From contig CM097884.1 in assembly GCA_044892505.1 (NCBI GenBank), forward strand, positions 18,972,001-19,032,133: a stretch of DNA of 60,133 bases. The letters are read 5' to 3'. Positions 188 to 27,031 of this stretch are shown here, in pieces. Source of the DNA: Schmidtea nova (taxonomy: Eukaryota). The translations under genes were made by a program, and so were the position numbers. The notes under the pieces were generated by a model, which saw nothing but the letters and a program-made list of their open reading frames with translations, made no database searches and was not told the origin of the DNA. Within the stretch, counting starts at the first letter, position 1; each line of letters opens with the position of its first letter.

Positions 188-247
188 TCATGCGAAATAA
201 TCCCGTGCCGTCGGGTCATAAAAATCGTACGGATCATCTGAGGTACC

Positions 248-288
<41 letters not shown>

Positions 289-6466: not shown

Positions 6467-6498
6467 TTTTTCAAATAAAGTTTATTAAAATAAATTGT

Positions 6499-6876: not shown

Positions 6877-6955
6877 AATAAGAATAATAAAAATAATAAC
6901 TTTGATCATTTATACTGTTTGAGCTCTGTTCAAACTAATAATGTTTAAGCTTTGC

Positions 6956-8538: not shown

Positions 8539-9556
8539 GATGTTTTCGAAAATGTAGAGTCAAATGAGTTTTTGAATTTTTTGGAAAGTTTATTAAATTA
8601 CCTCTATCATCTCGGATATTTATTTCTATATTGTTTATACAGGATGTTGAAACAGATAAATACATTGGATTTTCAACTTGTATTTGAACAACCTCATCCT
8701 GTTCATATTTTTCAATCCATACAGATTTCAACATGGGAACTAATGAATCACCGACAATTATAGGATTGACTATATTACTGTAAATGAACATTTGCTGATG
8801 AAGTTTAATTATTTTTGGTTTATATATTCCAACAATGAAGCTTCCGTCTTGAGCATATGTAGCTTTCGCTAATCCCAATGTTTTTACAAGGTTATTGTCA
8901 AAAGTTATTTCGCTAACATCTGCATTCAAACTGAATTTGAAGTAACTATCATCTACCAATTCCAGAGATTTAAAAATACTTGCACAATTTAGAATAAAAT
9001 ATGATTGCATTTCATCCAGTTTCGATATGTATAAATTATCGGTAAATGTATGTATAAATACAGAATCAGCCTTGTACTCCATCTTTATTCTAATTTTTTC
9101 CGTTAATGGACCATCTATACCATAATATGGTAACGGTATCTTGTATGTATCTGTAGGACTTACAATACTCTGTTTCGTTAATCCCATTCTTTTTGCCATT
9201 GCCAAAGTATCAAAAGTTATAGTGAAGGGAAAATTATCACAGGTAAAATAAATAGAATGTCTATCGCTACTGATTTGAGCAATATCATCGGCAGGATTAG
9301 ATATATCAACTTCACAAAATTGATTGTTGATAATCAAATTTTTATATTTTGTATGTATAGTTTTCTTTTTGTACCGAATTTCTGATTTACTGTAAAATGG
9401 AAATGGATTATACACAAATGTAAAGTCTAAGAGAGCGACTTCCCAAATTCCGTCCAAATACATTGGATTTTGGAGATTGACCATGAAATTACTGGAAGTA
9501 TTATCTGGATGTATATCTGGACAACTGTTGCTAGGTAGAATCATATAAAAATTCAT
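8531..9556 (-). CDS. Minor capsid protein (penton); likely start at 9556 (MNFY), track start 9583
   Basis: FYMILPSN...NTSSNF...L..P..LDG.WEVAL N-terminus and LTLHFRK C-terminus. Confidence 0.88.
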   Translation of the reverse strand: MNFYMILPSNSCPDIHPDNTSSNFMVNLQNPMYLDGIWEVALLDFTFVYNPFPFYSKSEIRYKKKTIHTKYKNLIINNQFCEVDISNPADDIAQISSDRHSIYFTCDNFPFTITFDTLAMAKRMGLTKQSIVSPTDTYKIPLPYYGIDGPLTEKIRIKMEYKADSVFIHTFTDNLYISKLDEMQSYFILNCASIFKSLELVDDSYFKFSLNADVSEITFDNNLVKTLGLAKATYAQDGSFIVGIYKPKIIKLHQQMFIYSNIVNPIIVGDSLVPMLKSVWIEKYEQDEVVQIQVENPMYLSVSTSCINNIEINIRDDRGNLINFPKNSKTHLTLHFRKHHE

Positions 9557-10600
9557 TTTACTAGGTTTTTTGATGATATCCATGATGGTTCTTTATATCC
9601 GTGCCACTTTACATAGTATTGTTTATCCTTACCCACCATTTTAGATTTCAGGATTTTTTGAATTCTAAATATTGTCGGTGGAGGAATAACTTGTAATTCT
9701 TGTTCGTAGAATTTCCCACTGATTATATTGTTATCAGAGTCACAAATAGTATACATGACAGGATTCTGCACTGTGTTGACTTTCGATATTTGATATACCT
9801 CATCACTCCAATTATTATCAAAATTTTTAATGAATGGCGATGCACTAATCTTGCTAATTCGAACATGATCACCAATTTTATATTTTGGTTTCTTTACTTT
9901 TACTTCACTCACAATATTTTCAGTATCAACTACTTCTGCCGGTTTCCTGCCATTTATACCCCGATGAGCACTATGATTATAACTATGAATCAATTGAGGT
10001 AAAACATTAATCCAGGTTTTATTGCCTTTAAAAACAAAGTATTTTTTCAATCGATCCCGCAAAGTTCGATTAAATCTCTCGACATGAGCGGCTTTGAATT
10101 GCGAGAATACCGAATAATGATTTATTCCCTTGATAACTTCCTTGACTTTACTGTTGTAAAATTCCTTTCCTAAAAAATATTAAAAAATGTATAAATTTAA
10201 ATTAAAATTTACCCAAATCGGTTTGTAAATTAGTTGGCCGATCCTTTTTCATCATTGTCTTGATAGCGATTGCCATGTCATTAGCTGATTTCGATTTTAC
10301 TCCAATTGCTCGAGCAAATCTACTGTAAACATCAATACATGTTAAAATATACTTGTACCCCTTGTTAATAGCGGAATACGGAATCATTTCCATCAAATCC
10401 ATTTGCCACAAATCATTGATTCTATATGTTTTATATGCTCGGGTTGGAAACCGTTTCAACATCGGTTTGTTTAGACTGTATGCAAGTTGCCCCGATAACC
10501 AACTTTGTGTCTGTTGTTTCGACTTCTGTGCTTTTTTCCTTAGCTTTTCGACTCCACCGAAACCGGCGTCGTCTTTTGGGTTCGTCCAGATCTTCTCCAT
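9553..10600 (-). CDS. Retroviral-type (rve) integrase with C-terminal chromodomain, spliced (intron 10212-10170; 334 aa)
   Basis: WQMDL, then QTDLG|KEFYN across the intron, VERFNRTL, YYVKWHGY chromodomain; spliced length 1005 nt, no internal stop. Confidence 0.95.
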
Positions 10601-10655
10601 TACAACAAGAAGATTTAAAGTTTAAATTCAAATTAGGTAATGATTGACCCATTGT

Positions 10656-11201
10656 TTATGACCTTTGTCCCAATAAACCAGCACCTCCCAATAATGATAA
10701 AGCTAGTGGTAATAATGCGGCAATAAATCCTCCTTGTTGTTTATATATTATTTTTCGCATAAGTTTTCGATTTTTTGTTTTTACTAGCGACAACAATGGT
10801 TTCTTATGCTTGTTCAAAACACGTCGATTAGATGGACTGAGATGCATTTTACCTCGTACTACTTTAATTAAAATAGTGAGTAAATCATCGATAACGTAAT
10901 TAGGAAACGATTGAAGAATACCCATTCTTCTAGCGGATGGGGCTTTAAGCAATGCATTAAAAAACGGAAAACTCCGATGATGTACTTGTTTAGCATTTGA
11001 TTTCAAATTAATTGGAATTTGATTTTGTTTGGGAAAATTATCCATAATTAGTTTTTTCGATGGTGTATAACTTGTTTTTGAAACTGATTTTGAAACGGAT
11101 TTCTTTGTCGATTTCTTTCTTCGACCTGCTTTCTTACCTATTTTCATTGATTTTCGAGCTTTTATCAATCGTTCAAACTTTACTCGAGATTTCATTAACA
11201 T
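10656..11201 (-). CDS. Basic core protein with adenovirus pX-like C-terminus
   Basis: K/R-rich; ends QQGGFIAALLPLALSLLGG. Confidence 0.55.
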   Translation of the reverse strand: MLMKSRVKFERLIKARKSMKIGKKAGRRKKSTKKSVSKSVSKTSYTPSKKLIMDNFPKQNQIPINLKSNAKQVHHRSFPFFNALLKAPSARRMGILQSFPNYVIDDLLTILIKVVRGKMHLSPSNRRVLNKHKKPLLSLVKTKNRKLMRKIIYKQQGGFIAALLPLALSLLGGAGLLGQRS

Positions 11202-11221
11202 TATTATTACTGTAAATCAAT

Positions 11222-11845
11222 TTAACTTTGTTTATAAACCATGGCTCCTTCCTTGTTAAAAATATCAGTTCTAACCCTTAAATCATCACTGCATTGTTGA
11301 GTAAAATCCAAGAAAATATATCCATGAGGAGATTTTGTAGCATCCTGAAAGGCTTCAATCAAAAAGTTACGATTTGAAGGATAAGCTTGTCTTGCCAGAA
11401 AATCAATAACTGTTGCATCTCTAGGATTTTTAAAAACAACAAGATATTGAACATTTAAATTACGAGTTCGATGACTACCGCCCTGATGAAATAAATTCTG
11501 AGTTATAAAAATAACAGTAACACCTTTATGTCTACTGATTTTCGTAAATAAATTATTAAAATCCTTTTCTTTATTTGCTTCTTGATACAAGTCGTCAATG
11601 ATAATCACATCACCTTGTTTTAATCTAGATGACCAGTTTTTATCGAAACCTTTTATGATTGTCATTTTTATTTTACAAAACTGATCTTGTGTCATTCCAC
11701 TTTCGTCGTCAGCACCCCTATGCCAATAAATATTATTAAATTTCGACTTGAATAATTTCGATTGCAATAATTTACAAACAAATAAAGTTTTTCCACTCCC
11801 GCTAGGACCAACAATTTGAAACACTGCATCATTTCTTAATTCCAT
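11222..11845 (-). CDS. A32-like genome-packaging ATPase
   Basis: Walker A GPSGSGKT, Walker B IIIDDL, SRH..VTVIFITQ, KNPRD. Confidence 0.93.
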   Translation of the reverse strand: MELRNDAVFQIVGPSGSGKTLFVCKLLQSKLFKSKFNNIYWHRGADDESGMTQDQFCKIKMTIIKGFDKNWSSRLKQGDVIIIDDLYQEANKEKDFNNLFTKISRHKGVTVIFITQNLFHQGGSHRTRNLNVQYLVVFKNPRDATVIDFLARQAYPSNRNFLIEAFQDATKSPHGYIFLDFTQQCSDDLRVRTDIFNKEGAMVYKQS

Positions 11846-11938
11846 ATTTAAAAATTATATTTTCTTAATATTATTGTTTATATTTGTTTTAAATACCTGT
11901 TCTCAAAGTAATCATTTCATTTAAAAATATTTTCAGTA

Positions 11939-12406
11939 ATGATTAGAAACATTAATTACAAGGGTAAGACAGATGTATCACACATGAAATTTCCAAATGG
12001 AAAACCCCAGCAAATTGTAGATCGAAGTGGAAAATACCCAATAATATACTTTAAATCAGGAAGATATAGAATAATGGGATGCAGGGAATTTATTAGTGAC
12101 GAACAAGTTGAGTTTTACGATTTAAAGATACAATCGATAACTGTAACTGCAGATTTAGGATTTATTTGTAATTTGAATGAATTATCGAAATTAATACCAT
12201 GTGTTTACGAGCCAGAATTATTTCCAGCTTTGAGATATATCAAATATAATCCCATGTGTGTAAATATATTTGCAAGCGGAAAATTAGTCATATTAGGATT
12301 AAAAAACAAAGACTATAGTACTATAGTTGATGATATTATTTACGATATAAAATCAATTATAGAAGATAAAGCCTTTGTTGATTTCATACTAACATGTGAC
12401 TCATGA
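11939..12406 (+). CDS. TATA-binding-protein-like protein
   Basis: ITVTADLGF..NL, YEPELFPAL and IFASGKLVILG match the TBP second repeat; IYFKSGR resembles a degenerate first repeat. Confidence 0.85.
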   Translation: MIRNINYKGKTDVSHMKFPNGKPQQIVDRSGKYPIIYFKSGRYRIMGCREFISDEQVEFYDLKIQSITVTADLGFICNLNELSKLIPCVYEPELFPALRYIKYNPMCVNIFASGKLVILGLKNKDYSTIVDDIIYDIKSIIEDKAFVDFILTCDS

Positions 12407-12574
12407 CTGCAATATCGATGCATTAGAAATGCACGATTCTGATTGGCTCTGTGTGTATCGTTAGAATAAAGACATGTTGTGCATGCTTCATTCTGATTGG
12501 TTCATTATGTGTGTTTCAAATCATGTGTGTTTCTTTGATATATATACTATGAACAATCTCGCATATTCACAATA

Positions 12575-13221
12575 ATGTCTCTTACGCAAACACTAATTAA
12601 AAGCCGTAAGGATTTTTAATTATTTATTTATTAAAATTAATATTATTTCTTTTTTTAGAAAAGCTGATGAACGTCATATATCGGAAGCTGGAGGAACTGT
12701 TCCCAAATCTGATGCCGGCTCTGGTCTACACGGCTCCGGAGATGTTCCCATATAAAATTATGGTCCTGACTGGTATCGATATAAACCAGATTGTGCTCGA
12801 TCATATGACGAGCCAGAATACCGATTTGCCAGTGGTACCCGAGCACATTATCTGTGCGTACCAATGCGGAAGTTGTGTTGAGCGCATTCGCCAATTCAAC
12901 ATTTGGGTTTTGCGAAACTCATTGAAATTATACGAAGTCCAACAAATGGACAAAATCAATGAGGAGGAGGAGGAGGACCAAATCAAGGAAACCTGGCCCA
13001 ACTCAACTCCGGAGCCGACTGATGAAACAACAACAACAACAACAGAATTGGAAGCACCAACTCTAGATGGTCCGTTTCCATCCGATGAATCCGATGAATC
13101 CAATGATTGTATGGATTCGCCACAATCACCGGATTGTGCAGAATGCCATCGACAAGCTGATGGTGGTGTTGAGGAGGAAGAAGAAGAAGAAGAAAAAGAA
13201 AAAGAAAACACCGAACAATAA
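12575..13221 (+). CDS. Spliced accessory protein, Cys-rich and acidic (intron 12606-12658; 197 aa)
   Basis: GTAAGG...TTTTAG intron joins MSLTQTLIKS in frame to QKLMNVIY; paralog at 27609-28043. Confidence 0.7.
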
Positions 13222-13747
13222 TTTGATGTGTGTGTGTGTTTAATGTATTTAGTTTTTAGTTTTGTAATTTTAGATTAATAAAAGTTTTTTTTTTTTTTTT
13301 TTTTTATTCATTTTAGTTTTTATTTTTATTTAAATAATAGTAATACTTTTTGATAAAAAAATTTTTTATTAGTAGTTTTTTATTAACTATATAAAATAGT
13401 AATTAGTTTTTATTAAATAATTAGTAAGAAAGTGTTTTATGAAAGATAATATTAATAATAATAATAAAAAATAATAAAAATAATTGTTAAATAAACAAAT
13501 AAGTAAATACATTAGTAGCAGAACATTGCAAACAGAACCCTGGACGTAGAACTTATTCTGTGATTGTTTTTATATGAAAAAGCTTCATAATAAATAATTA
13601 AAACATACATGCATGCATACAACAAAGACATTGCAATACATGTGCATACTGTGTGCAAAACAAATGCATGAATATGATTGGACAAAGACATCCAGTCATC
13701 AGTATAAATACAAAGACATTTTATAAAATATTGTCACTATTTACAAC

Positions 13748-14164
13748 ATGCAATCACGAAAACAAAATCTCGATATATGCGATGAAAAAATATACCAGAC
13801 TGAGGTAAAACCAGTTCAGATGTACTATGACAGCCGACTTTATTTTTTGGTTAATGAAATACCGTATCGATTATCATTTCCGGTAAAATTAACAAAATCT
13901 TTATATGATAGTCTTGCTGTAATTATTGCCAAGGAAGATATTATCGCATTAAATAGATTATTTTCAAAGATGAATGTTAATTTGACATGTAAAGAAACCA
14001 TGTACATCAATAACAGAAAAACTCGGTTTCATGATGCTTTTCAAACTATTGATTTCATGGATCAAGAACACTGGTTCGTTACAGTTATTATTCAAGGGTA
14101 CAAGATTGATAAAAAAGATGTTGTTACTCCGATTTGGAGAGTTGACAATGCAAGATACGCATAA
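13748..14164 (+). CDS. Polinton accessory protein of unknown function
   Basis: 138 aa; clear paralog at 31656-32063 (shared PVQM, FLVNE, FHDAFQ, IQGYKID, PIW). Confidence 0.7.
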   Translation: MQSRKQNLDICDEKIYQTEVKPVQMYYDSRLYFLVNEIPYRLSFPVKLTKSLYDSLAVIIAKEDIIALNRLFSKMNVNLTCKETMYINNRKTRFHDAFQTIDFMDQEHWFVTVIIQGYKIDKKDVVTPIWRVDNARYA

Positions 14165-14228
14165 TTGTTTTTTAATAAATATTTTAGTATGAACAAATTT
14201 AGTTTTTATATTAGTTTTTGTTTTTAAA

Positions 14229-14816
14229 ATGAAATTAATTATAGTTATTTTATTATTATGTGTTGATAATACTGAAGGAGAACAAGCTTTGGAAGATTGT
14301 CAATCATCCCATCCGTTTCGAAAACAAGATAGTACTTGCGCGAGTTATAACGATATATGTCTTTACTCAAACATTGAATGCAATCAAATAAAATTACAAT
14401 GTAATCAATGTCCTTCCAAAAATAATGTGATTAATAAAGATATTGAAAAAATGATTAACAAAATAATGATGAAAATAGTTGAAAGATTAAAATGTATAAA
14501 TCAAACTATTGTTAAAAAAGAATATGAAGTCAGATACCAAAATCAAACAGTGGAAAACGAAAAAACAGCAATTGTTTTACATTATATAAGTTTATTTATA
14601 TTAATAATTATAATGATGTTATCGGCATCCATACGGCTGGAGAAGATTTCAAATATTCCAAAGAATAATATTCCGACAAATACTAGTATTCCGATGAATA
14701 ATATTACAATGAATAATAATAATATTCCTATGAATAATATTCCGAGTAATAATTCAGATGTAAATAATTTTGAAACGAAATTTTGTACACGTACACAACG
14801 ATATATTTATAAATAA
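14229..14816 (+). CDS. Predicted type I membrane protein with Cys-rich ectodomain
   Basis: Signal-like MKLIIVILLLC, Cys-rich segment, TM IVLHYISLFILIIIMMLSA, Asn-rich tail. Confidence 0.55.
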   Translation: MKLIIVILLLCVDNTEGEQALEDCQSSHPFRKQDSTCASYNDICLYSNIECNQIKLQCNQCPSKNNVINKDIEKMINKIMMKIVERLKCINQTIVKKEYEVRYQNQTVENEKTAIVLHYISLFILIIIMMLSASIRLEKISNIPKNNIPTNTSIPMNNITMNNNNIPMNNIPSNNSDVNNFETKFCTRTQRYIYK

Positions 14817-14830
14817 ATTTTGGCTTTTTA

Positions 14831-14995
14831 ATGTCTTTGTTTATGTTGTACATGTGTTGCACGCATGTGTCTTTGTTTAGTTTGCATGTGTATTGCAATG
14901 TCTTTGTTCATGTTGCACGCGTGTTGCAAAGTCCTTGCACGTGTGTTGCAATGTTTTTGTTAACTTGCACGCGTGTTGCAATGTCTTTGTTTAGT
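14831..14995. repeat. Imperfect tandem repeat of ATGTCTTTGTT / GTTGCACGCGTG units
   Basis: Several ATGTCTTTGTT and TTGCA(CGCG)TG copies visible. Confidence 0.7.
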
Positions 14996-15219
14996 TTGAA
15001 AGATAATAATTAAATAAAAAACATTAGTAGCAGAACATTTAGTATCAGAACCCTGGAAGCAGAACATTGCGATCAGAACCCTGGAAGCAGAACCTCTTCT
15101 GTGATGGTTTTGAAGTGCAAAAGCTTCATACTTGACAAATAATAATTAATTAAAAATGCACACATATAAAAATGTCTTTGTTTGCACACCTGTTGTAAAT
15201 ATTTTTGATGACTCTAATT

Positions 15220-15590
15220 TGGTCTTATAAAAATAATTTGTCTTAAAAAAAAAATTTTTGAAAAAAATAATTTGTCTTAAAAAAAAAAAAATTTTTTGAA
15301 AAAAATATTTGGTCTGAAAAAAAAATTATTGAAAAAAAAAATTTGGCGCGAAAAAAAAATTTTGAAAAAAAAATTGGCGCGAAATAAATATTTGAAAAAA
15401 AAAATTTGGCGCGAAAAAAATTTTTGAAAAAAAAATTTGGCGCGAAAAAAAATTTTGAAAAAAAAATTTGGCGCGAAAAAAATTTTTGAAAAAAAAATTT
15501 GGCGCGAAAAAAATTTTTGAAAAAAAAAATTTGGCGCGAAAAAAATTTTTGAAAAAAAAATTTGGCGCGAAAAAAATTTTTGAAAAAAAA
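15220..15590. repeat. Subterminal ~31-bp tandem array with 8 TTGGCGCGAAA (E2F-consensus) cores
   Basis: GGCGCG cores start at 15345, 15376, 15408, 15439, 15470, 15501, 15533, 15564; three degenerate units precede. Confidence 0.9.
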
Positions 15591-15597
15591 AAAATTA

Positions 15598-15771
15598 TGA
15601 CTCATCGATGACTCATCGATGACTCATCAAAAAAAAGTATGACTCATCGATGACTCATCAAAAAAATTTTTTTTTCTACCCCCCCCCGGGGGGAGGGGGG
15701 TCTTTGTTCTTTTTTTCCGCCCACGCATGAGTCATAATGTCTTTGTTCCCGGCTCCACACATCTACCTACT
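15598..15771. promoter_or_regulatory. Right terminal region with TGACTCA (AP-1-consensus) repeats and C/G-run palindrome
   Basis: Five TGACTCA in 15598-15660, TGAGTCA at 15728, C-run/G-run at ~15679-15700. Confidence 0.7.
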
Positions 15772-18700
15772 AGAGAAAGTAACAAGAAACTCACACCACT
15801 CTTCAAAGCAGAAGCACCATACCAAGCTAGACTAGATGCGATACAAGAAAAAGCAAAAGAATTGTTACCGGAATTCGAGAATAGTAAACATGCACTGGAA
15901 ATACTCGGTGCATTAGTTGAAAAAGTACACGCATACGCAAAAGGAACATACAATGGTAACGATATAACGACTATAAAAAAGGAGATGCCAGTAACATTTT
16001 TACTACCAAAGGACGGAATAATGCCCATACATAGAGCTCTACGAAATGGCAAAGATAAAAAAGTAATGGAAATTGCAAGAGTAATGTTAAACTGCGGAAG
16101 CAACATGAATATGGTAGACGAGAAAGGAGATACACTCATGATATTTGCAGCAAGGGCCAAAACGAAAACAAAAGTGCTGGAAGAACTATACAAAGCAGGT
16201 GCAGGACTTACAGGAAAGACAGACAAAGATAATTCAATTCTGGATGTAGCATTACTAACACATAATTGGGAAATGGTCAACTTCATTAAAACAATCTCAA
16301 ATCAGGAAGAAATAGATTACCTAACTGATACGGTCAGGAAACCCAGTGTACTAACAATGATGCATAATGTCGAACTAACAGAAGCAATACTTACGTGGAT
16401 AAATCCGAATACTATCGAACCAGCATTCAGGATTAATGAGTTTACAGAACATAACCAAAATTGGTGCATAAGAAGTGCCTTAATAACGTATAAATGGCCA
16501 GAGATATTGAAGATGTTTATGGAAAGAAAGGATCTAAGGATCACAACCAGCCCGAAGGAAGAAAAGTACACAGGCAAATGGAAAGAATTGATGAAGACAT
16601 ACATCAACAATTGGATCAAGGCCAAAAAGGAAATCTTAGAATATAAATCCACTAACAAAGTAATACCAGAACAGGTAGAAACACAAGAGTTTGAGGCAAG
16701 TAATCTAACGACATTAGCGTATGCGAAACTAATAGAAGAAATCAATGTCGAGGACGACATTTTCGACGAGCCAGGGGGAGATGACAATACAGATAGTGAC
16801 GACGGTAACAACGCAGAAAATTCAAACGATCACGAACCACCCGATAAAGAGGAAAACGAGAGAAAAGACAAGAAACGAGACAAGGAAGAAAAGAAAAGTA
16901 AAGACGAAAAACAAAGAGATGAAGAGGGAGAACAAGGAAAAAACGACCAAGGAGATAAAAATGACACCCAAAGAACAGGTTATAAATCAACCATAAAACC
17001 ATTCTTCAAACCAGAATTACTATTATTAACAGTGATTTTAACGTTAATTAACCCAAGTCAAGGAATGACATGTGAAGAAAGGGCAATAATACAAATAAAA
17101 AACGCGAAAGGAATCGAACGAGTATGTTGGTCAAAAAAGGACAAAATCACGGAACAAAATAGTCCGATGGATTGCAGAATCTCAAAACACGAGCAAGAGA
17201 TCATAGAGATCAATGACCTAGATCTAAATACCTGGTACAAAATATGCACCGTTAGAAAACAAAAGCATCCAAGATCACGCAACACAATCGCATGTGCAAA
17301 ATACCAAACACCTAAAGCAGCCATGACAATACAACAGTCACCCAAAGGAGATTACATCCTCGGAAAATGTGGAAGAACAGAGACACAGGGAACAGAAAAC
17401 AAAAAACCCCAGGCAATAGATAAGCAAGCAACACCAACCCTACGAATTACAATAAAGAGGCCCGAAGCAAGAGTTGCCACAAACGAAACCGAAAGAGTGT
17501 CTTACCAAATGGAAGTATTATGTTTAGCACTCATACTAATAATAATAAAACGATTAGAGGAAGGGATAGAAATCGAAACTATGACAATAACAGAAGTAGA
17601 AGATACACAGAATACTAACATAAAATGTTGGGCGAGGAATAACGAGGAAATCGGCGTAAATGAAATAAGGAAAAGTCGAAAACCAACAACGAATAAAGTA
17701 ATTAAAGTATCCGAAGTAAAAGCAGATAAAACGTACAAACTATGCCTACTAGAAAAAGAGAGAAACAAGAAAGGTACCAAAAAATGTAAAACATTCCAAC
17801 CTGGAGAAGTAATAAAGTTCAGAAGGAGAACGAGGAAGAGAAATAAACAAATCAAGCGGAAAGTAAACATAACATTAGAAATAAAAGAGATAGAACCAAA
17901 TGTGAAAGGAGTATGCTGGAGGAAGTACGAAAAAGAAGTAAATAAAAGAACGACACCACAATGTCGAACAAACACAGGAACAACGACGATTCAAATAAAA
18001 GGTTTAGAAAGTAAACAAACCTACGAAATATGTTTGGTAAAGAAAAATGATCAGATAACGATAAACGACCTAGAATGCGGAATATATACAACTTCATCCG
18101 GAACAAGAACCAAAACGTTAACACGGAAAAATAAAAGGAAACAACAAAACAAAGAAAAACCGAAGTACACCACTACCTTTAAAAACAATAAACAACCAAC
18201 AAACCAAGAAGTTACGACGAAACCCGAGAGAAAAACATCAGCAACTCTAACATTATGGAAAATAGAGAATAAAACATTAGAAATATGTTGGATAATAGTA
18301 CAGAAACATATAAGAAGACAATCAAGAGAATGCAGAAAAACAAATAAAGAAATCAAGATCGAAAAACTACAATTTAATAGCGAGTATGAAGTATGCGCAA
18401 TAGAAATAATGGACGCACTAGGAAACCAACAAGAAAGATTCGAAACCTACTATACACCAGTAAACGCGACATCAAAAGGAATAACAAGGAAACTCGAATT
18501 CAGGGAACTAAGCCAAACGAATGAACAAATGGACGCAGAAAAAATAATAATCGACCCTCAAGCAAAATGGACACCCGAAGAAGTTATCAAAGAAGTCAAA
18601 AGAAAGCAAGAGGAACGAGAACAATTAATGAGAAAACTAAAAGGACAATACGGAATAATGTTCAACCAAAGCAAATCTATACAAACAGACGAGAATTAAC

Positions 18701-18966
18701 AAATCAAAGAATTAATTGGCTTAGGAATATTAACAGCGACCATACCGGTAATAATCGCATTATCAGCTATATGGATACGCAAGATAAGCCCAAGAAAATC
18801 AACAACCCAATGGCTAAATATAGATAATACAAGCCATGGAGTCGAAATACTGGAAGCACGAGAAGAACCAAGATCGACCAGGAATGAGAAAGAAGCAAAA
18901 GGCGGAAAACTGGGAATGAACAACGAAGACAAAGAAATAGAAGAGATTAAAAGCAAAGAGACGTAA
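15727..18966 (+). CDS. Ankyrin repeats + acidic linker + internal signal-like peptide + four FN3-like repeats + TM; in-frame TAA at 18697-18699 precedes the TM
   Basis: About three ANK repeats (GIMPIHRA, GDTLMIFAA, DNSILDVA); CW...C...L.xxYxIC repeats; frame continues as LIGLGILTATIPVIIALSAIWI. Confidence 0.7.
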
Positions 18967-19008
18967 TATGAAAGGCGAACCAGAAGCCTACCGCAGAGTT
19001 CAAAATGG

Positions 19009-20469
19009 TTGGGTCTAACAATAATATTGACATTAATCAATAGGGAAGAAGCAATAAACCCACAGACAGGGATAAAAGTAATAAATGTTCAGGAAGTCGA
19101 GAAAATATGTTGGTATAGAGAAGATGAACCAATTGGAGAAAATAACCCACTAAAATGCATAATCCGAAAATCCGACCAGGATATAGTACGAATAGAAGAA
19201 ATGGATGGAGGGACCATGCATCGGATATGCATAATAGAAAAGGAAAAGAAGTCGGGGCTACCTAAGACAGTCGTATGTCAAAAATATGAAACACCTAGAC
19301 TTGAATGGTATAAAGTAAAACCAACAAAGAAGGAAATTAAAAACACAATAGATCAACCAGCAACTCAGATGAAAAACACAACGGACAAACCAAGAGAGGG
19401 GGAGAGAAGCACAAATAACACGAGAGAAGGAGTATCACCCCAACAAGATTTTGTATGCATAGCGTTAATAATAGCAATGTCCAAACGTATCGATAAAGGA
19501 ATAATAATAGAACAAATGGCTATGACAATAAGGAGAAAAGACCAAAGCAACAACATATGCTGGGGATGGTACAACGAACCTAGGGAATACCAAGTTCAGA
19601 CAAGCGACGAATCACGAACAAACCAGGAAACCGAAATACAAGAAATACAAATGAACGGAGAAGGAAGTATATGTATATGGGAGAAAGGAATCCAAGAAGA
19701 TCAAACCGGAATAGAAAAATGCAAGACATTCCAAAAAGGAGAGATTCTGAAATTCGATAAAAAAGAATTAACCAAAACAGAAAGAACTCTGACATTAACA
19801 GGACTTGATCAGACAGTGAAAGGAATATGTTGGACAAAGCATAACCCAGAAGGAGAAGAAGCCAACCTAACCCACTGTAAAGAAACAGGGAATAAGGAAA
19901 AAGTCGAATTAAAGAAAATGGAAGTAAATAAGACATACGCGATATGTACCTTCACCAGAAAAGGTTCAGAAAAACCAGAATGCGGATTATATCAGATCTC
20001 AGAGAAACTACAACAACAGATCAAACCAGGAAACGTGGAAAACCGAACAAAAGAAAATAACGTCAAACAACTACTAAACCGCCATTGGTCTACCCAAGAA
20101 GTAATGAACAAAATCAAGAGTCAAATACAGAAAGAGAAGAAGCCAGAGGCTCAAACCCAAAATGAGATAAAAGCGAATCAGAAGAAAATCAAAGCAACAA
20201 ACCGTGGAAAAACAGTAATAGGACTAATCAGTATAGGAATATTAATAGCATATGGAATACTGACGACAAGCATAATAGTATATTGGAGATACAGAAAGAG
20301 AAACAAAGCGACAGCCATACAATGGCCAGATATTAAAATTATGAAACAAAGAATAGAGATACCAGAAGAGATACAGAAAGAATTTCAAAGAAGAACGAAA
20401 GGTAAAGAATTCTGGAAACAAATAGAAGATGAAGAACGATACGAAGAAAAGACGATAATGATGGTATAG
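19009..20469 (+). CDS. Membrane protein with three FN3-like repeats and TM; no ATG start, same frame as the upstream ORF
   Basis: Paralogous to the FN3 module upstream (ILTLIN, VCIALII..KR, W.xEV, TM, QWxxI). Confidence 0.7.
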   Translation: MGLTIILTLINREEAINPQTGIKVINVQEVEKICWYREDEPIGENNPLKCIIRKSDQDIVRIEEMDGGTMHRICIIEKEKKSGLPKTVVCQKYETPRLEWYKVKPTKKEIKNTIDQPATQMKNTTDKPREGERSTNNTREGVSPQQDFVCIALIIAMSKRIDKGIIIEQMAMTIRRKDQSNNICWGWYNEPREYQVQTSDESRTNQETEIQEIQMNGEGSICIWEKGIQEDQTGIEKCKTFQKGEILKFDKKELTKTERTLTLTGLDQTVKGICWTKHNPEGEEANLTHCKETGNKEKVELKKMEVNKTYAICTFTRKGSEKPECGLYQISEKLQQQIKPGNVENRTKENNVKQLLNRHWSTQEVMNKIKSQIQKEKKPEAQTQNEIKANQKKIKATNRGKTVIGLISIGILIAYGILTTSIIVYWRYRKRNKATAIQWPDIKIMKQRIEIPEEIQKEFQRRTKGKEFWKQIEDEERYEEKTIMMV

Positions 20470-20594
20470 GGGCGGATTATGACTGTAAATAATAGTGTAA
20501 ATAACAAAGCATTACCGTAATAGTATGGGTATCGATATTATAAAAATTGTAAAAAGATAGAAAAGCAAAGTAAACGATGTATATAATTTAGAAA

Positions 20595-20951
20595 ATGACC
20601 GAACAAGACGAAACAACGGAAATAACTATGGCTATGAGATGGAAGGCACAATGCAATTTATTAGTACGAACAGTCAACTCATTACAGAACCAATTAGCGG
20701 AAAAACAAATGTTACTATCAGAAAGTTATAACAACTGTTTCGAACAATTACACAGAATAGAAGAACAACAAAGAATGATAACCGAACTCACCAGAGAAAA
20801 TCAAACGATAAGCAACATCAATCAAAGACAAGCAATAGAAATAAACCATTTAACACGAGGAGAAAGAGAAGAATCCGAAGAAGGATGGATGAGTTGGGTA
20901 ATAAATAGATTAAACAACGAAGCGGAACCAGATTCAACGAATGAGCCATAG
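20595..20951 (+). CDS. Coiled-coil protein of unknown function
   Basis: 118 aa with heptad pattern; shares the unit A spacer motifs. Confidence 0.6.
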   Translation: MTEQDETTEITMAMRWKAQCNLLVRTVNSLQNQLAEKQMLLSESYNNCFEQLHRIEEQQRMITELTRENQTISNINQRQAIEINHLTRGEREESEEGWMSWVINRLNNEAEPDSTNEP

Positions 20952-21043
20952 ATAAATAAAGCGGAAAATTGTAAATATGTAAAAATAAAAACAAGAAAAA
21001 TCAAAAATAAATGACAAGTCGAATGTATATATTATTGTAGAAA

Positions 21044-22420
21044 ATGGACAGAGAAGAACGAATAATCGAAATTTTGAGACTAGAAAACAAAAAATGGAGC
21101 AAGAGGCTCACATGCGGGAAGTGTAACAATTTATTACGAGAACCTAGACAAACGATATGTGGATGTAGAATATGTACAAAATGTATACAAGAATTAGATG
21201 CAACAGGAATAACAACATGCCCAGAATGTAAAGAAGGAAGAATAGTGTTGGACGAAACCAGAACGGATAAAGCAACCCAGAGAGAAATTATGAGCACCAT
21301 AACGGAGTGCGTAAATACACCTTGTACATGGCAAGGACAAATAAGCAATCTAGAAAATCACATGGAAAATTGCGAAGAGAAAAGAGCCGAATGCGAGAAG
21401 TGTCAACAGATAATAATTCTAAAGAAGAAAGAACAACACAAGGACGAATGTAAAGAAGAAGAAATCGCATGCAAGTATTGTGAAACTCGAGAGACAAGGA
21501 GGAGAATCGAAGAAGAACACTTAAATATAACAGAGGAGAAAGTATGCGGACAATATGTAAGCAAATGTCCAAACAATTGCGAAATAACAGAAGAAATAAA
21601 GTTACATGAACATTGGAAAATATGCACCGAAAGGCCAAGAGAATGTCCATATAACAAGCATGGATGCAAGGAAAAGCGGACGCGAAAAACAATGAAACAA
21701 CACTTGGAAGAAGCAGCATTAATGCATGTGGAGATGACAAACGAGGCGGCAAAAGAAACAGAACAGACAATGCAGAAACTGGAAAAGGAAGTAGAATCAC
21801 ATAAAATAATGATGAGTTTACTACTAGAAACAAGAGAGCAGTTTGAACTAACTCGCAAAAGAATGGAAGAAAAAATAATAGCCATAGAAGAATTGGGAAA
21901 AGGAATGAAAATACAATATAATCAATTAATACGAGAAATTGACGAAAGAAGGGACTTACCAATTGCACCTTACCTATGGAAAATAACAGATTTTAGAGAC
22001 AAACTAGCAGAGGCCCGAAATATGACTAAAACAGCAGTAATAAGCCCACCATTTTATTTATGGAAAAATGGGGTTAAAATAAGATTGAAAGTATACCCAA
22101 ATGGAGACGGAAGAGGACAAGGAACACACGTGTCAATATTTTTCTCGTTATGTAAAGGAGAATACGATGACCTAATAGAATGGCCCTTGAAAGTAGGAGT
22201 CATTATAAGAATCAAAAGTATAGGAAAACCAGTAGAAAAGTTCTTTGAAACAGACAAACATACGAGTACAAGCGAAAAACCAACAACAGAATGCGGACTA
22301 GCAGCAGGAGAACCAATGTTTATAAGGAAAGAAAACCTATGGGAGCGACTGTATGCAGACACGCTATACATAGAGATGGAGAGGCATGAGAAAACAGACA
22401 GAAAAGGATGGTTGGCGTAA
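21044..22420 (+). CDS. Full-length TRAF-family protein (RING, TRAF zinc fingers, coiled coil, MATH)
   Basis: CGKC...CGCRICTKC...CPEC RING; C.N.PCTW and CPYNKHGC zinc fingers; MATH SPPFY...YPNGDGRGQGTHVSIFF...GEYD..IEWP. Confidence 0.95.
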   Translation: MDREERIIEILRLENKKWSKRLTCGKCNNLLREPRQTICGCRICTKCIQELDATGITTCPECKEGRIVLDETRTDKATQREIMSTITECVNTPCTWQGQISNLENHMENCEEKRAECEKCQQIIILKKKEQHKDECKEEEIACKYCETRETRRRIEEEHLNITEEKVCGQYVSKCPNNCEITEEIKLHEHWKICTERPRECPYNKHGCKEKRTRKTMKQHLEEAALMHVEMTNEAAKETEQTMQKLEKEVESHKIMMSLLLETREQFELTRKRMEEKIIAIEELGKGMKIQYNQLIREIDERRDLPIAPYLWKITDFRDKLAEARNMTKTAVISPPFYLWKNGVKIRLKVYPNGDGRGQGTHVSIFFSLCKGEYDDLIEWPLKVGVIIRIKSIGKPVEKFFETDKHTSTSEKPTTECGLAAGEPMFIRKENLWERLYADTLYIEMERHEKTDRKGWLA

Positions 22421-22531
22421 TGAAGAAAGTAACCATGTAAATAAACTGTATAAAACAATATGAAATAACAAATAATCAAAAACAATAAAAATAAAAACTG
22501 ATTAAATATTCTTTTATCTGTAATTATAGAA

Positions 22532-23593
22532 ATGGGAAATATAGAGGTAACCTTACAAGAAGTAACCGTACATCAAGACGAAATGATCAGAAATCACATG
22601 GAGCGGATTGGGATATGGATTCACGCCTATTATCGAAAACAGGAGGAATTAGAAAGACAAACCCAAGCACTAAGAGAAGCCGAGAAATCGAATCAAAGAA
22701 GTCGAGAAAAAATAGAAGAAGTCTACAAACTGCTAAGACAACAAAACGAATACTACAAAGGGATGATGAAAGAGCGACGAGAGGATAGGGATAGACAACA
22801 GATAAAAACAGACCATAAGATTCAGTCAATCACCGAACAAGCAAGATATTGGAAAAAAGAGGCAAAAGACTCTTACAAGGAAGCAAGGGAGATAATAGAA
22901 CGAACAGCGTACAGCGATGATTGGAAACTGTTTAAAGAGATCGATGAATTAAAAGAAGAATTAGGGAAAAAGATCAGTCAAGAAGCGTCAAATAAAGTAT
23001 GGAGTAAGAAAAGACAACAATTCATCAGGGAACAAGCCAAGAAAATTAAAGAATTAACTCACCAAGTGCAAAGAATGGGAGAAGATTTAGCCAATCAAGA
23101 ACAATTAAAAGGTATGCTGACCGGAATGTGGAATCACAAGGAAGAAAACATGAAAAGAGACATAAATGGATATCAAGGAGTGATTACCCAGAAGAAAATA
23201 GAATTAAAAAGAACTAAAGAAAGACTGGAAGAAACGAGGCAGAGTTATGAAGAGAACATAACAAATTTGACAAAAGAAAACGAAGAACTGAGAAAGAAGC
23301 TAACAGAAAAACCAGTACCCACAAAGGAAACAAGTATCACAGCAGCAGTGACCGAAATGATAGAGAAAGAAGAGAGAGAGAAAAAATTAGCAGAACTAGA
23401 AAAACAAATAGAAACCCTAACAGAGCAGGCGAACTATCTGGAATACTTATTAGATGAAGAGATCCAGATATCCCACACGTACCGAGAGGAAGTGGAAATG
23501 TGGAGGAGTACGGTAATATGGATGCCACTCCCCATAAATCAGGTGGAACCTCAAGACGAAGGTTTTCACGAACCTAACGAAACCCTCGTGTAA
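22532..23593 (+). CDS. Long coiled-coil protein
   Basis: 353 aa, E/K/R/Q-rich heptads, MG start. Confidence 0.65.
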   Translation: MGNIEVTLQEVTVHQDEMIRNHMERIGIWIHAYYRKQEELERQTQALREAEKSNQRSREKIEEVYKLLRQQNEYYKGMMKERREDRDRQQIKTDHKIQSITEQARYWKKEAKDSYKEAREIIERTAYSDDWKLFKEIDELKEELGKKISQEASNKVWSKKRQQFIREQAKKIKELTHQVQRMGEDLANQEQLKGMLTGMWNHKEENMKRDINGYQGVITQKKIELKRTKERLEETRQSYEENITNLTKENEELRKKLTEKPVPTKETSITAAVTEMIEKEEREKKLAELEKQIETLTEQANYLEYLLDEEIQISHTYREEVEMWRSTVIWMPLPINQVEPQDEGFHEPNETLV

Positions 23594-23672
23594 ATGAGCG
23601 GAAACCAATTGTAAATAGATGATGTAAAATAAAAAGCGTCAAGCTGTATTGACTCCTATGTAAAGATAGAAA

Positions 23673-24233: not shown

Positions 24234-25755
24234 ACTTTGTGAACATTTCTGATGAACCTTTGACTATCCTGTGACAATAATCTGATAATATTCAACTATC
24301 CTATGACAAATCTTATGATGTATATAAATTCTATCACCTTAAGTGATTTTCTTTGTGTTTATGTGTATATCTGTAAAACTTTTTATGTATGATGTTATAA
24401 GTAGATATGTATAATTAATTGCGGGACGCAATTTTAGGGGTCCCCGAGTGATGTTGGGCCCACCAATTGGTCTAAAAAGGCAAAAATATTGTACTAATTT
24501 AAACAATAAATACAAATAATAACCACAAAAAACATTCGAAAAACCTAAATTAAAAATTAAAATAAAATAATAAATAATAATTACTAAATTTCCAGCAAAG
24601 GAAGAAAATCAAATTGACACGAGAACGAGCAGTATGGGGGTCTGAAATAAGAAAATTACAAATAAAATCAAATAAAAGTACAATTAATTGGTTAATTACT
24701 TGAAAAAATCGAGACCACCCAGCGAGAAATCTGAACCGGAAATTTAAAATGGTTTATATTAAAATAAAATAACAAAATTACTTTGATGGACGGCCTGATC
24801 CTGATTGGTCAATCTGACCAACTGGATCAGTATAAATACCGATCCAAAAATCATACAGGTAACACCTAAAAACTTAGCTACCGAACTGATCTATCATAGT
24901 CAACTTTGATACGATAAATATTGTGTAAACTTTTGGAAACGCTGCATCTTGGATTTAAAGAGTAAATTTTTTTGTATTGTATTTTGCACTAATTTTATGA
25001 TATGTTTTACATGATTCCCATTTGTTTCATTTCATTTAATATAATTTATTACTATTAATTGCTCTATTTTCTTATGCTATTATTTTATGATATGATAAAT
25101 ATACTTCCTCAGTAGCTAACGCTGCGAGGGAGCAAGCCGTAAATGTGGGATTTCACCGTTCCACAAGATGGTGAGCAGACTTTTTATGGGTATTTTTATT
25201 TAACTTAATTTTATCAGAGGTTTAACTTTACAGTAAAGTTGTGCAGGGACCAGGACACGAGTAAAATTAGCAGCCAGTGTTTCACATTAGTCAATTAACA
25301 TTCGATCAGACAGGAGAGAATAAACTACAGTAGCTATTATCATGTCAATTGATTTTGCATATACACACGATTTTTTTTTTCTCTCGAATCCACATAGCTG
25401 ATCGAAATAATGTCCGGACACACCGAGACGATTTCGACATGTCAACGATAGTTTCAATTAGGATATAAATAACCACATAATCAGATCGATGCTACTGATT
25501 GAATAAGTAAAATCGTAACCTGATCGCTGTAAATAGCGCAGGTAATAATATGTAAATTTTTTAATATCCCGATCGCTGTATATAGTGACGGTGTTAATTG
25601 AATAGCTTAGAAAATATAATTTTTTTTTATTATTCCTCCCTTTCATATTTTTTTTTGTTGTTGTGTTGATCAACGAGAGGAGCACTTTTCATCAGGTCTC
25701 ACCAAAATTTACGGATTCGTCACAGTAAATTTTATTAGTATTATTATTTTCTCAG

Positions 25756-26256
25756 ATGAAAGCAACGATACTGGATGAATTTCTAACAACTCAACGTCAT
25801 GTGGCACGGGTCGAAAATCCTCTAATCCGGACGCAACAGAAGAAATTGAAGTCGCTCCCACAGGAACTTCTAAGAACGCTAAATGCGTTGATGTATAAAT
25901 GGAGACGGGAACTAGGAAAGAAATGTCCATTTTCGATTTGGGCCGGTGGATTAGATACCATCATTTATCGTGGAGGCCCCGGATGGGAAATTCAGGACGA
26001 AAGAGACCGGGAGACGACCGCGCTGTTCATCATAGTGGTGACAGACAGAGAAGAAAATCCAACGACAGTGATCCATTGGGGATATGTCTCACCGCTCAAG
26101 TTGCTTCAATTCGGGTTGATTCCGAATCACCTACCAAAAACGTGCCATGGGCGTCCCAAACTAAACTGTTCGATGGCTCACATCCGACGAGATCCAGTCA
26201 ATCACGGGTTACATATTACTCCCGTTCACGGCCTCAAGCGAAGCGTTTTTCACTAA
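25756..26256 (+). CDS. Hypothetical protein
   Basis: 166 aa ORF with raised GC; ATG directly after TTTTCTCAG. Confidence 0.4.
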   Translation: MKATILDEFLTTQRHVARVENPLIRTQQKKLKSLPQELLRTLNALMYKWRRELGKKCPFSIWAGGLDTIIYRGGPGWEIQDERDRETTALFIIVVTDREENPTTVIHWGYVSPLKLLQFGLIPNHLPKTCHGRPKLNCSMAHIRRDPVNHGLHITPVHGLKRSVFH

Positions 26257-26440
26257 ACATTATATTCACATTTTTATGAACTAAACTATTTCCATAAATT
26301 AAATGGTATTGATCTGTGTTTTGTTTGTTCTTAGTTAAATTTATTTCTATTTATTTAATCATATAAATTTTACACTCGACGGATAATATTAATCGTGGTA
26401 ACAGAATTGCTACATTATAACATGGGTTTTGTTATTTAGT

Positions 26441-27031
26441 ATGACGGAAACTAGCCAACAGCGAGAATTGGACAAGGCGTGGAGAATCCGCCGAGCCTTA
26501 GAGAGGGAACTAAATCAGGAAAAAGCATTACGAGCCAAGGCAGAAGCTCAGATTCAGCATTTACGGACCAGCTGGTTCGCCCCAGCCCGTATGAAGGAGC
26601 AGATGAGTCGGACGGAAAGGGCTCAAAAGACAGCTGACGATTATCGCACCGAATGGGAAGCAACAAAAATTGAGTTGCGCCGATGTCTCCATTCGGTGAC
26701 GACTTCATTTATCGAGTCCGAATTGAAAGCACAAATCCGACCCATTACCTACCAGAAATGGGTAGGAGAACAGAAAGTGGCCTGCTCAGTCAGTACAGAC
26801 ACCGATGGGCTCGAGGCAACAACAGCGCAGAGTCGGGTGGAAACCACCACTGCACCAAACCCCGCCGGAAAACCGAATAAGCGAAAACGAATCGGCTCCA
26901 AGCGCCGTCGCCAAAGAAAGCTGTTTTCTCAGCAATTGCAGACACAAGTAACCACTATGGCAGAAATGTCGGAGGCCGAGTGGTTATCAGAGATATTCCC
27001 TCCTGAAGGAATTTTCAAAGAATTTCTATAA
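26441..27031 (+). CDS. Hypothetical coiled-coil protein with basic NLS-like segment
   Basis: ATG at 26441 after TTTAGT; KPNKRKRIGSKRRRQRK. Confidence 0.45.
   Translation: MTETSQQRELDKAWRIRRALERELNQEKALRAKAEAQIQHLRTSWFAPARMKEQMSRTERAQKTADDYRTEWEATKIELRRCLHSVTTSFIESELKAQIRPITYQKWVGEQKVACSVSTDTDGLEATTAQSRVETTTAPNPAGKPNKRKRIGSKRRRQRKLFSQQLQTQVTTMAEMSEAEWLSEIFPPEGIFKEFL

Follow-up and report, generated by a model that had tools for sequence, protein, structure and literature searches.

A truncated reading frame encoding ankyrin repeats and two FN3-like membrane modules in a multi-copy element of Schmidtea nova

Features of the locus

One reading frame in the window (the whole stretch of 60,133 nucleotides of Schmidtea nova DNA that was analysed) encodes ankyrin repeats followed by two homologous modules of fibronectin type III (FN3)-like repeats, each with a transmembrane (TM) helix (Table 1). 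Positions 15727, 18697, 18964, 19009 and 20467 fall in the same frame, and its sole stops are TAA 18697, TAA 18964 and TAG 20467; the remaining two frames across 15772-20469 hold 163 and 88 stops. The claim of an earlier note that the reading frames opening at 15727 and 19009 are one, split only by the two TAA codons, therefore agrees with the frame check. The 88-codon piece between the two TAAs is open, as were 11 of 5000 base shuffles, and none of 5000 shuffles left the module 2 frame stop-free.

Table 1. Positions of the features described, in window coordinates
Feature	Position	Strand	Basis
Polinton/Maverick in element (polB-like, protease, capsid-like, integrase, A32 ATPase); left end outside window	188..15771	-	Pfam
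Polinton right terminal repeat end, with false start ATG 15727	15727..15771	.	Contig departures and end motif
Long reading frame, 5'-truncated, 1566 codons with two internal TAA	15772..20469	+	ORF analysis
Ankyrin repeats	16030..16287	+	Pfam Ank_2 31.2 bits, cut-off 27.3, E 3.4e-7; Atlas ankyrin clusters 0.97-0.98
Signal-like H1 (with ILTLIN), net charge +4 before, -1 after	17014..17052	+	Motif and charge scan
FN3-like repeat D1, module 1	17074..17313	+	Repeat alignment; weak Fn3_ELFN match
Second short hydrophobic segment H2, without positive n-region	17512..17550	+	Motif and charge scan
FN3-like repeats D2 (17566-17814), D3 (17860-18102), D4 (18232-18462)	17566..18462	+	Repeat alignment; D3 model
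Helical stalk, W[TS]xxEV at start	18568..18696	+	Motif scan; stalk-TM-tail alignment
First internal TAA, six codons before TM1	18697..18699	+	Frame analysis
TM helix 1 (TM1), basic residues after; tail QW..I at 18808	18715..18777	+	Motif and charge scan
Second internal TAA, private to window copy	18964..18966	+	Sister contigs in 4 of 4 runs
Signal-like H3 (with ILTLIN), net charge +3 before, 0 after	19006..19041	+	Motif and charge scan
Module 2 ectodomain: D1' (19057-19296), H4 (19447-19482), D2' (19498-19746), D3' (19774-20004)	19057..20004	+	Module and repeat alignments
Module 2 stalk, TM helix 2 (TM2, 20215-20286), tail with QWPDI, terminal TAG	20086..20469	+	Motif scan, alignment
Four short spacers, 410 nt total, with TGTAAATA and T-rich AG 2-3 bases before each ATG	20470..23672	+	Motif count
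Coiled-coil-like ORF, 118 aa	20595..20951	+	Weak coiled-coil family matches only
Intronless full-length TRAF (RING, zinc fingers, coiled coil, MATH)	21044..22420	+	MATH_2 E 3.8e-21, zf-TRAF E 5.1e-7
Coiled-coil ORF, 353 aa	22532..23593	+	ORF list, Pfam search
ORF, 186 aa: N-terminal hydrophobic stretch and TM segment	23673..24233	+	By eye; Pfam search
Probable element 3' non-coding/terminal part; ORFs 25756-26256 and 26441-27031 of no known family	24234..27031	+	Sister contigs

ATG 15727, previously taken as the gene start, falls in the terminal repeat of a Polinton, and two sister contigs continue upstream. Behind 15771, sets of 152, 81, 85 and 85 contigs depart from the window with unlike flanks (agreement 0.38-0.40), and the first depth bin is ~12-60 times the bins inside the ORF; 15727-15771 belongs to another, far more abundant element than the long frame. 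The end motif at 15771 recurs at 32506, 48554 and 48988, and a short element with like ends (48554-48988) has a 5-of-6 target duplication. The Polinton is recognised by Pfam matches to Peptidase_C5 (E 5.4e-6), Pox_A32 (E 4.9e-7), rve (E 2.9e-8) and chromo (E 1.8e-5); its capsid-like match is weak (DJR-like, E 0.0045), and its polB has motifs found by eye and no Pfam polB match. Its insertion at 15771/15772 removed the 5' part of the frame in the window copy. The frame is accordingly 5'-truncated at 15772, and the protein is longer in other copies.

Downstream, the receptor-like frame adjoins genes resembling immune-signalling adaptors. The best relatives of the TRAF ORF are about 25% identical over 90% or more. 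Five copies of TGTAAATA lie in the 410 spacer bases versus none in 8052 coding bases, and the spacer signals look polyA-signal-like and splice-acceptor-like in sequence. Further on, sister contigs cover all 30 depth bins, with a peak at 24443-24860 that is suggestive only as a sign of an LTR; the two ORFs of 24234..27031 have no Pfam match above noise.

Two homologous modules with an FN3-like fold

The first part of the frame matches Pfam Ank_2 above its cut-off, in keeping with the ankyrin N-terminal part proposed earlier for an ancestral polyprotein. The proposed module duplication is likewise supported, the two modules being 30% identical over 362 columns (E 1e-47). Between the two TAAs lies the TM helix and tail that module 1 otherwise lacks, as had been suspected: this piece aligns with the TM and tail of module 2 with a score of 89 against a shuffled mean of 36, and 0 of 2000 shuffles scored as high. 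Stalk, TM and tail are homologous between the modules. Each of the motifs reported as shared is present in both modules, namely ILTLIN (17035 and 19024), W[TS]xxEV (18568 and 20086) and QW..I (18808 and 20320), together with a TM (18715 and 20224) and a second hydrophobic segment (17515 and 19450). W[TS]xxEV probably just marks where a helix begins (a capping box) and does not identify a family. CW-anchored, Cys-bearing repeats number four in module 1 and three in module 2.

For repeat D3, structure prediction gave a model with pLDDT 84.5 and pTM 0.70, in which DSSP assigns six strands. Its best structural match is LAR FN5 (rmsd 2.7 Å over 74 residues) with Z 7.8, under the level of 8 that the search tool calls distinctive, and nearly all of the 50 rows returned (Z 7.8-6.6) are FN3 domains by title. 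The FN3 fold that the earlier note had assigned to the repeats is thus recovered, with a confident model for one of the seven: as modelled, D3 is a fibronectin type III beta-sandwich, and the remaining six follow by alignment (13-29% identity) and a low-confidence three-domain model. Among Pfam profiles the fn3 cut-off is not reached (best E 0.072, 13.8 bits versus 25, in one of seven repeats), and Fn3_ELFN and Interfer-bind match weakly.

Receptors of the gp130 type are marked by WSxWS in the membrane-proximal FN3 domain and by a proline-rich Box1 after the TM helix. A loose Box1 likeness had been seen in QWPDI of module 2, but the long frame holds no WSxWS, strict or loose, and no Box1-type PxxPxP, WPx[VI]P or PxP, and the module 1 counterpart, QWLNI, is without proline; the gp130 reading is therefore rejected. 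The TRAF-binding motif PxQx[TS] is absent from both tails in a motif scan.

No close relative is present in the databases searched. At E <= 0.001, ORF1 has no protein relative among proteins of 544-1733 aa, and module 2 none among those of 876-2500 aa. A two-module profile matched 2 of 1.84 billion representatives: a bacterial FN3-repeat protein (E 3.6e-7) and a protein with a Ras domain, rejected as a compositional artefact. In the PDB sequence search the module profile had 0 matches and the repeat profile only matches at E >= 0.3. The viral and metagenome contigs searched hold no related loci, and the exact pattern around the first stop has 0 metagenome matches. Atlas matches of module 2 (0.81-0.82) serve as leads only, and a viral structure search with a low-confidence model returned generic FN3/Ig proteins only.

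A multi-copy, A-rich carrier

The window stretch is a multi-copy repeat, found in 5,247-12,074 contigs per run (contig numbers, not copy number) in identity classes from <90% to 99+%, and the frame is carried by a mobile element, not by a host receptor gene. The FN3 frame and the downstream TRAF and coiled-coil ORFs have the same strong A-bias. At fourfold sites the A/T ratio is 3-17 in this unit versus 0.4-1.2 in Polinton, Penelope, Gypsy and host ORFs; a nearby, separate A-rich element with a viral fusion-protein fragment (41921-42340) has 3.7-10.7. The Polinton was considered as the carrier and is ruled out by its terminal repeat at 15771 and its different base bias.

The unit might instead have been carried by a large DNA virus or DNA transposon, or be an amplified cluster of host genes. 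A DNA element would account well for the polyA-like and acceptor-like signals that separate the ORFs, whereas a retroelement needs full-length RNA and is hard to square with internal polyA-like motifs; no RT of this unit is found in the window, and ankyrin, TRAF and FN3 are host-type domains. However, the unit is intronless, its strand-specific A bias is lacking in the Polinton and host ORFs of the window, and the Polinton terminal repeat separates it from the Polinton. We regard such an origin as unlikely, although it is the best placed of the alternatives to the retroelement-like element favoured below.

The two internal stops

At the position of TAA 18964, all contig depth in four of four public runs (7, 8, 4 and 3 contigs) carries a sense codon; the four runs belong to one study, and the window's own source is possibly among them. 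The second TAA is a copy-specific nonsense change or an assembly error. Of the nonsense mutation or readthrough previously offered, readthrough does not stand for this codon, and in sister copies the frame runs on across it. Two other accounts were rejected. A true gene end was considered because the codon lies near the position aligned to the natural stop of module 2, but the sister sense codons argue against it; a changed genetic code conflicts with the TAA codons that end the TRAF and 353-aa ORFs of the element and with the absence of the second TAA from sisters. At least half of the two stops is ordinary decay, and the window copy is dead.

Other sister differences leave the frame intact. 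A frame-keeping 6-base insertion behind 18853 is present in 31-59% of sister depth, and one contig of run X1 passes from the tail of module 1 into that of module 2 at exactly the homologous position, with a net difference of 1512 bases and the frame kept, as would be expected of a one-module relative. Module 2 had been described as lacking an ATG: in the window copy ATG 19005 is out of frame and no in-frame ATG was found before H3, but an in-frame Met at 18916 precedes the second TAA. Another in-frame Met, at 17509, precedes H2.

The first TAA could be conserved in the family and leaky, so that mostly a secreted ectodomain of four FN3 domains is made and a minority of readthrough yields the anchored form and module 2. 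Its place six codons before TM1 is exact for a soluble/anchored switch, and only about 10 of the 717 codons one step from a stop fall at most 10 codons before a TM. CAA directly follows the stop, and CAA after a stop is a leaky context, although the CAR-YYA motif is only half present and the RNA after the TAA has no unusual structure (z -0.86). TAA 18697 is missing from the best 40 of 1054 sister difference rows, an absence that would suit conservation but, given 40 of 1054, says little. With a private stop 89 codons on marking the window copy as decaying, we think a leaky stop improbable, and the first stop, too, may be a private nonsense change.

Membrane topology and possible processing

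H1 and H3 each combine a basic n-region with a short h-region of about 11 residues, as internal signals do. An alternating signal/stop-transfer topology agrees with the positive charge found ahead of H1 and H3 and behind TM1; TM2 is basic on both flanks (+6/+4). Judged by eye, the residues after H1 satisfy the small-residue (-3,-1) rule, whereas a charged residue stands at -3 after H3, so module 2 may stay attached. If membrane-spanning, H2 and H4 would flip the topology.

The poor site after H3, and a motif scan that found no furin-type RxKR or RxRR in the long frame, could also mean that H3, and perhaps H1 too, stays uncleaved as a signal-anchor, in which case one multi-pass protein would display two FN3 ectodomains rather than being processed. 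The short cores are more like cleavable signals than anchors, the site after H1 is a good one, and the frame repeats a complete type I protein in series. To us this arrangement seems about as improbable as the leaky stop.

Interpretation

On balance we favour a decayed copy of a multi-copy, A-rich and most likely giant retroelement-like element, in which the frame would end a longer polyprotein at its 3' side, and this polyprotein would be cut into an ankyrin part and two type I FN3 membrane proteins. By its content the element appears Burro-like, and this class assignment is putative. The family polyprotein would read: ankyrin, charged linker, module 1, module 2, with further sequence ahead. 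Each module would comprise a signal, one FN3, a linker, a hydrophobic patch, further FN3 repeats (three in module 1, two in module 2), a stalk, a TM and a tail. H1 and H3 would act as internal signal sequences that thread the chain through the ER membrane, and H2 and H4 would pass into the lumen. Cleavage would then leave a part with the ankyrin repeats in the cytosol and two glycoproteins of type I in the membrane, their FN3 ectodomains stapled by disulfides, and the TRAF and coiled-coil ORFs may be read from separately spliced, polyadenylated RNAs. As surface receptor mimics or adhesion proteins, the products might, with the TRAF and ankyrin of the element, tune host TNF/NF-kB-type signalling where the element is active.

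A bolder reading, a new class of giant, A-rich, provirus-like animal element with two FN3 mimics cut by signal peptidase from the polyprotein tail, a conserved leaky stop that sets secreted decoy against anchored form, an IkB-like ankyrin part and a spliced TRAF, strikes us as less probable than either the leaky stop or the signal-anchor by itself. Least probable of all, the modules might be separate genes in one frame, entered through internal splice acceptors or Met 17509/18916 like the downstream ORFs: an acceptor-like AG precedes the ATG in four of four of those ORFs, the AG before H1 ranks at the 99th percentile for pyrimidine content among the 433 AGs of the frame, and in-frame Mets exist, but the modules are separated by neither TGTAAATA nor a T-rich spacer, the AGs ahead of H3 and H4 do not stand out (0.36 versus a mean of 0.33), module 2 has no counterpart of the Met before H2, and the module junction stays open across 18964 in sister copies.

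Planarians are known to host mobile elements whose very long polyproteins include apoptosis and ubiquitin domains; receptor-like FN3 membrane proteins are listed for none of them in the literature text searched, and abstract-level searches brought up no retroelement polyprotein described as having FN3-TM modules. If the carrier is a retrotransposon, the cargo range of such elements would extend to cell-surface signalling, and several membrane proteins would be made from one frame by an RNA-virus-like route, through internal signals. The influence of a transposon on the immune or cell-contact signalling of its host would then also become open to test.

Comparison with known systems

LAR, NCAM, Dscam, ELFN/LRFN-type and cytokine receptors share with the modules the FN3 fold and a TM helix with a basic cytosolic flank. 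In contrast, the window repeats are 6-19% identical to them, lack WSxWS, Box1 and a catalytic tail, and make up two receptors that follow a cytosolic ankyrin region within a single frame free of introns. Structural polyproteins of alphaviruses, flaviviruses and the bunyavirus M segment are processed by signal peptidase. They resemble the frame in alternating internal signal and stop-transfer segments, which would yield several type I membrane proteins; they differ in that the window products are FN3 receptor-like rather than fusion proteins, would be cleaved by analogy, and are encoded in integrated multi-copy DNA.

The neighbouring element shares its gene set with Polinton/Maverick elements, and its end motif is close to the (AGT)2//(ACT)2 type (PMC8097293); here it is the inserting element and not the carrier of the FN3 frame, and both its left end and its target duplication fall beyond the window. 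The planarian secretory cell nidovirus also has one long frame that has acquired ankyrin and fibronectin-type domains with a presumed action on the host, but its fibronectin domains are of type II rather than III, and it is an RNA virus with an RdRp, of which nothing is seen here (PMC6211748).

Burro/GYPSM1 elements, giant Gypsy-like LTR retrotransposons of planarians, have a very long polyprotein with ankyrin, many copies and possible proviral status, and carry MATH/TRAF and Smc-like coiled-coil motifs in the giant polyprotein or accessory ORFs (PMC6431247). Their listed domains do not include FN3-TM modules, and the word 'fibronectin' has 0 occurrences in the review text searched (PMC6431247). 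The window holds no gag, protease, RT or integrase of the FN3-bearing element, whose 5' part the Polinton has displaced, and the 24.2-29.5 kb region does not recur in it to form an LTR pair; the Burro-like marks Gag, PR, RT, RNase H and IN and an env-like fusion domain would sit in the displaced upstream part. The TRAF of the window element is a full RING-ZF-MATH gene placed downstream, and the likeness is one of content, without a sequence link. Ankyrin repeats, MATH/TRAF accessory domains, coiled coils, a putative long polyprotein and many dispersed copies are features of the window element, as of Burro (PMC6431247).

A duplicated FN3 module in the frame of a mobile element

The long frame (15772 to 20469, plus strand) belongs to a mobile element and has been truncated by a Polinton; it carries an FN3-TM module that was duplicated within a reading frame shared across the family. 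The observation in the earlier note that drew attention to this frame is real, and its interpretation is right in part. From 15727 up to 20469 the frame contains only three stops, TAA at 18697 (the first stop), TAA at 18964 (the second stop) and the final TAG, as claimed; the other two frames of the same stretch hold 163 and 88. All five motifs that the note pairs between the modules occur in both, and the proposed duplication is borne out by an alignment of 362 columns with 30% identity (E 1e-47). The stalk, transmembrane helix (TM1) and tail of module 1 straddle the first stop and align with their module 2 counterparts (score 89, equalled by 0 of 2000 shuffles), confirming that the piece between the stops supplies the TM of module 1.

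Module 1 comprises four repeats and module 2 three; each of the seven is anchored by a Cys-Trp pair, and the majority contain four cysteines. None of the seven reaches the Pfam fn3 cut-off (best E 0.072); the ankyrin repeats predicted for the N-terminal part pass theirs. Folded with the seven-repeat alignment, the third repeat of module 1 (D3) is modelled confidently as a beta-sandwich (pLDDT 84.5). Of the structures that it matches in a set of 48,161 solved chains, almost all carry FN3 domain titles; the best has Z 7.8 (74 aligned residues, rmsd 2.7 A), and according to the tool Z below 8 may reflect a common arrangement. The model agrees with the FN3 fold anticipated in the earlier note. A low-confidence three-domain model matched fibronectin FN3 tandems (E 1.5e-5), and a module profile matched a bacterial FN3-repeat protein (E 3.6e-7). 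No close relative of the frame or its modules was found in the protein, viral and metagenome collections searched, whose reach is limited.

Genomic setting and downstream ORFs

The window is animal DNA, with proteasome-subunit and WW-domain exons, a Penelope-type RT, Gypsy fragments and a Polinton. Between 15.8 and 24.2 kb the plus strand is packed with intronless ORFs and shows a strong excess of A (AT skew mostly 0.3-0.6). At fourfold sites the unit formed by the long frame and the ORFs downstream has an A/T ratio of 3-17; ORFs of the Polinton, of Penelope and Gypsy elements and of the host have 0.4-1.2, and a decayed element lying at 41-45 kb has 3.7-10.7.

Four ORFs follow the long frame. 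The first encodes a short coiled coil, the second a full TRAF protein (MATH E 3.8e-21; nearest relatives ~25% identical), the third a long coiled coil and the fourth a small membrane protein. The sequence TGTAAATA occurs five times in 410 spacer bases versus 0 in 8052 coding bases, and a T-rich AG lies 2-3 bases 5' of every ATG of these four ORFs; we infer polyA-like and splice-acceptor-like signals. No spacer of the TGTAAATA type separates the two FN3 modules.

Features of the window, with strand where assigned
Position	Strand	Feature
188-11854		Polinton genes
11912-12406	+	TATA-binding-protein-like ORF in the Polinton (Pfam TBP E 1.1e-13)
13727-14164; 31626-32063	+; +	Similar 145-aa ORFs (by eye), no known family; first inside the Polinton, second far from it
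15289-15660		Sub-terminal Polinton arrays: a 31-nt repeat carrying TTTGGCGCGAAA (7 copies) plus repeated TGACTCA, which we take to be E2F and AP-1 sites
15772-17013	+	N-terminal part, holding the ankyrin repeats
17014-17052; 19006-19041	+; +	H1; H3
17860-18102	+	D3
25756-26256; 26441-27031	+; +	ORFs of no known family, with mild A bias and acceptor-like AG right before ATG; possibly within the element's terminal repeat
36501-38021; 30473-31214; 52784-53269; 59263-59795	+; -; -; 	Penelope-type RT ORF and several truncated copies, some in inverted pairs
32506		End of short non-coding element, Polinton-like AGTAG end
34393-35235	+	Ig V-set-like coding stretch (E 1e-6), probably host exons
40508-40688	-	Fragment of a diverged relative of the module 2 tail and stop region (70% identical, 169 nt)
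41400-45500	-	Second decayed A-rich element: remnants of coiled-coil ORFs, fourfold-site A bias like the unit, no RT seen
41921-42340		Fragment in preceding element: weak match to Monjiviricetes viral fusion glycoprotein (E 3.5e-6, below cut-off)
48554-48988		Short non-coding element, Polinton-like AGTAG ends, 5-of-6 target duplication

Sister copies and the 5' end

Related copies were compared over 15665-28200 in contigs of four public runs (X1-X4) from one study, in which about half of the sampled words were present and the window's own source is possibly included. Each run gave 5,247-12,074 contigs, in identity classes from <90% to >99% and covering all 30 bins, and the element therefore belongs to a diverged multi-copy family.

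The ATG at 15727 is not where the gene starts. It sits in sequence that contigs leave behind 15771 for unlike flanks (152, 81, 85 and 85 contigs in the four runs), and depth in the first bin far exceeds that in the others. Ends like the one at 15771 recur at 32506, 48554 and 48988, and they resemble the Maverick end motif of PMC8097293. Two X2 contigs extend upstream of 15772 (median 56 letters), with a 30-letter consensus that by eye is stop-free in the ORF frame, provided it abuts the site. This Polinton-type end and the upstream-running contigs indicate that a Polinton inserted in a longer ORF, of which the window does not contain the 5' part. A contig in two of the four runs joins 15770 to 17702, a Polinton-type end to the frame interior, on a weak short side of 23-25 letters; it may mark a further Polinton-type insertion, in a sister copy.

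In each of the four runs the entire depth at 18964 carries a sense codon (7, 8, 4 and 3 contigs); the second stop is therefore peculiar to this copy or to its assembly. The suggestion of nonsense mutation fits this stop, and at least one internal stop is plain decay; the first stop is not among the 40 difference rows listed of 1054. Among 12 indel rows listed of 67, the long frame accounts for one, a frame-keeping change of six bases behind 18853. A single X1 contig (depth 59) joins 18826 to 20361 through 22 intervening letters and so lacks a net 1512 bases, the exact spacing of the two QW motifs, as would be expected from a one-module relative or a recombinant.

Topology and function

The signal-like segments H1 and H3 have basic residues ahead of short hydrophobic cores, and TM1 and TM2 have basic residues behind. 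The chain could thread with its ankyrin part in the cytosol, then a signal, FN3 domains in the lumen, a TM and a cytosolic tail, followed by the second signal, again FN3 domains in the lumen, a TM and a tail, and cuts after H1 and H3 would release two type I membrane proteins. Three points weigh against this arrangement: it requires that the second hydrophobic segments H2 and H4 do not cross the membrane, the small-residue rule is poorly satisfied behind H3, and basic residues flank TM2 on both sides.

Programmed readthrough of the first stop could act as a switch between soluble and anchored forms, and this stop does lie where such a switch would sit, six codons ahead of TM1, a placement shared by only ~10 of 717 stop-adjacent codons; however, no special RNA structure follows it (z -0.86) and this copy is demonstrably decaying, and we therefore consider the switch improbable. 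The likeness of QWPDI to the Box1 region of gp130 is ruled out, as the frame has 0 WSxWS and 0 Box1-type prolines, the motifs of gp130-type receptors.

We favour the proposal that the protein serves in receptor mimicry or adhesion, acting with the TRAF and ankyrin parts of the element on host signalling. Both tails lack a canonical TRAF-binding motif, so their link to TRAF remains a proposal.

Comparison with known systems

A literature search at the level of listings, with limited reach, found no description of an FN3-TM polyprotein element of this sort. A planarian nidovirus polyprotein shares ankyrin domains with it, but belongs to an RNA virus and has fibronectin type II domains rather than FN3 (PMC6211748). 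Among described systems, the giant Gypsy-like elements of the planarian Burro family come closest. Membership in that family cannot be claimed because no gag, pol or LTR pair of this element was seen in the window. According to the review PMC6431247, ankyrin, MATH/TRAF and Smc-like motifs are found in the Burro polyprotein or in accessory ORFs, together with an env-like domain. Ankyrin and MATH/TRAF are common to both, whereas fibronectin domains, unmentioned in that review, are present here as FN3 modules.
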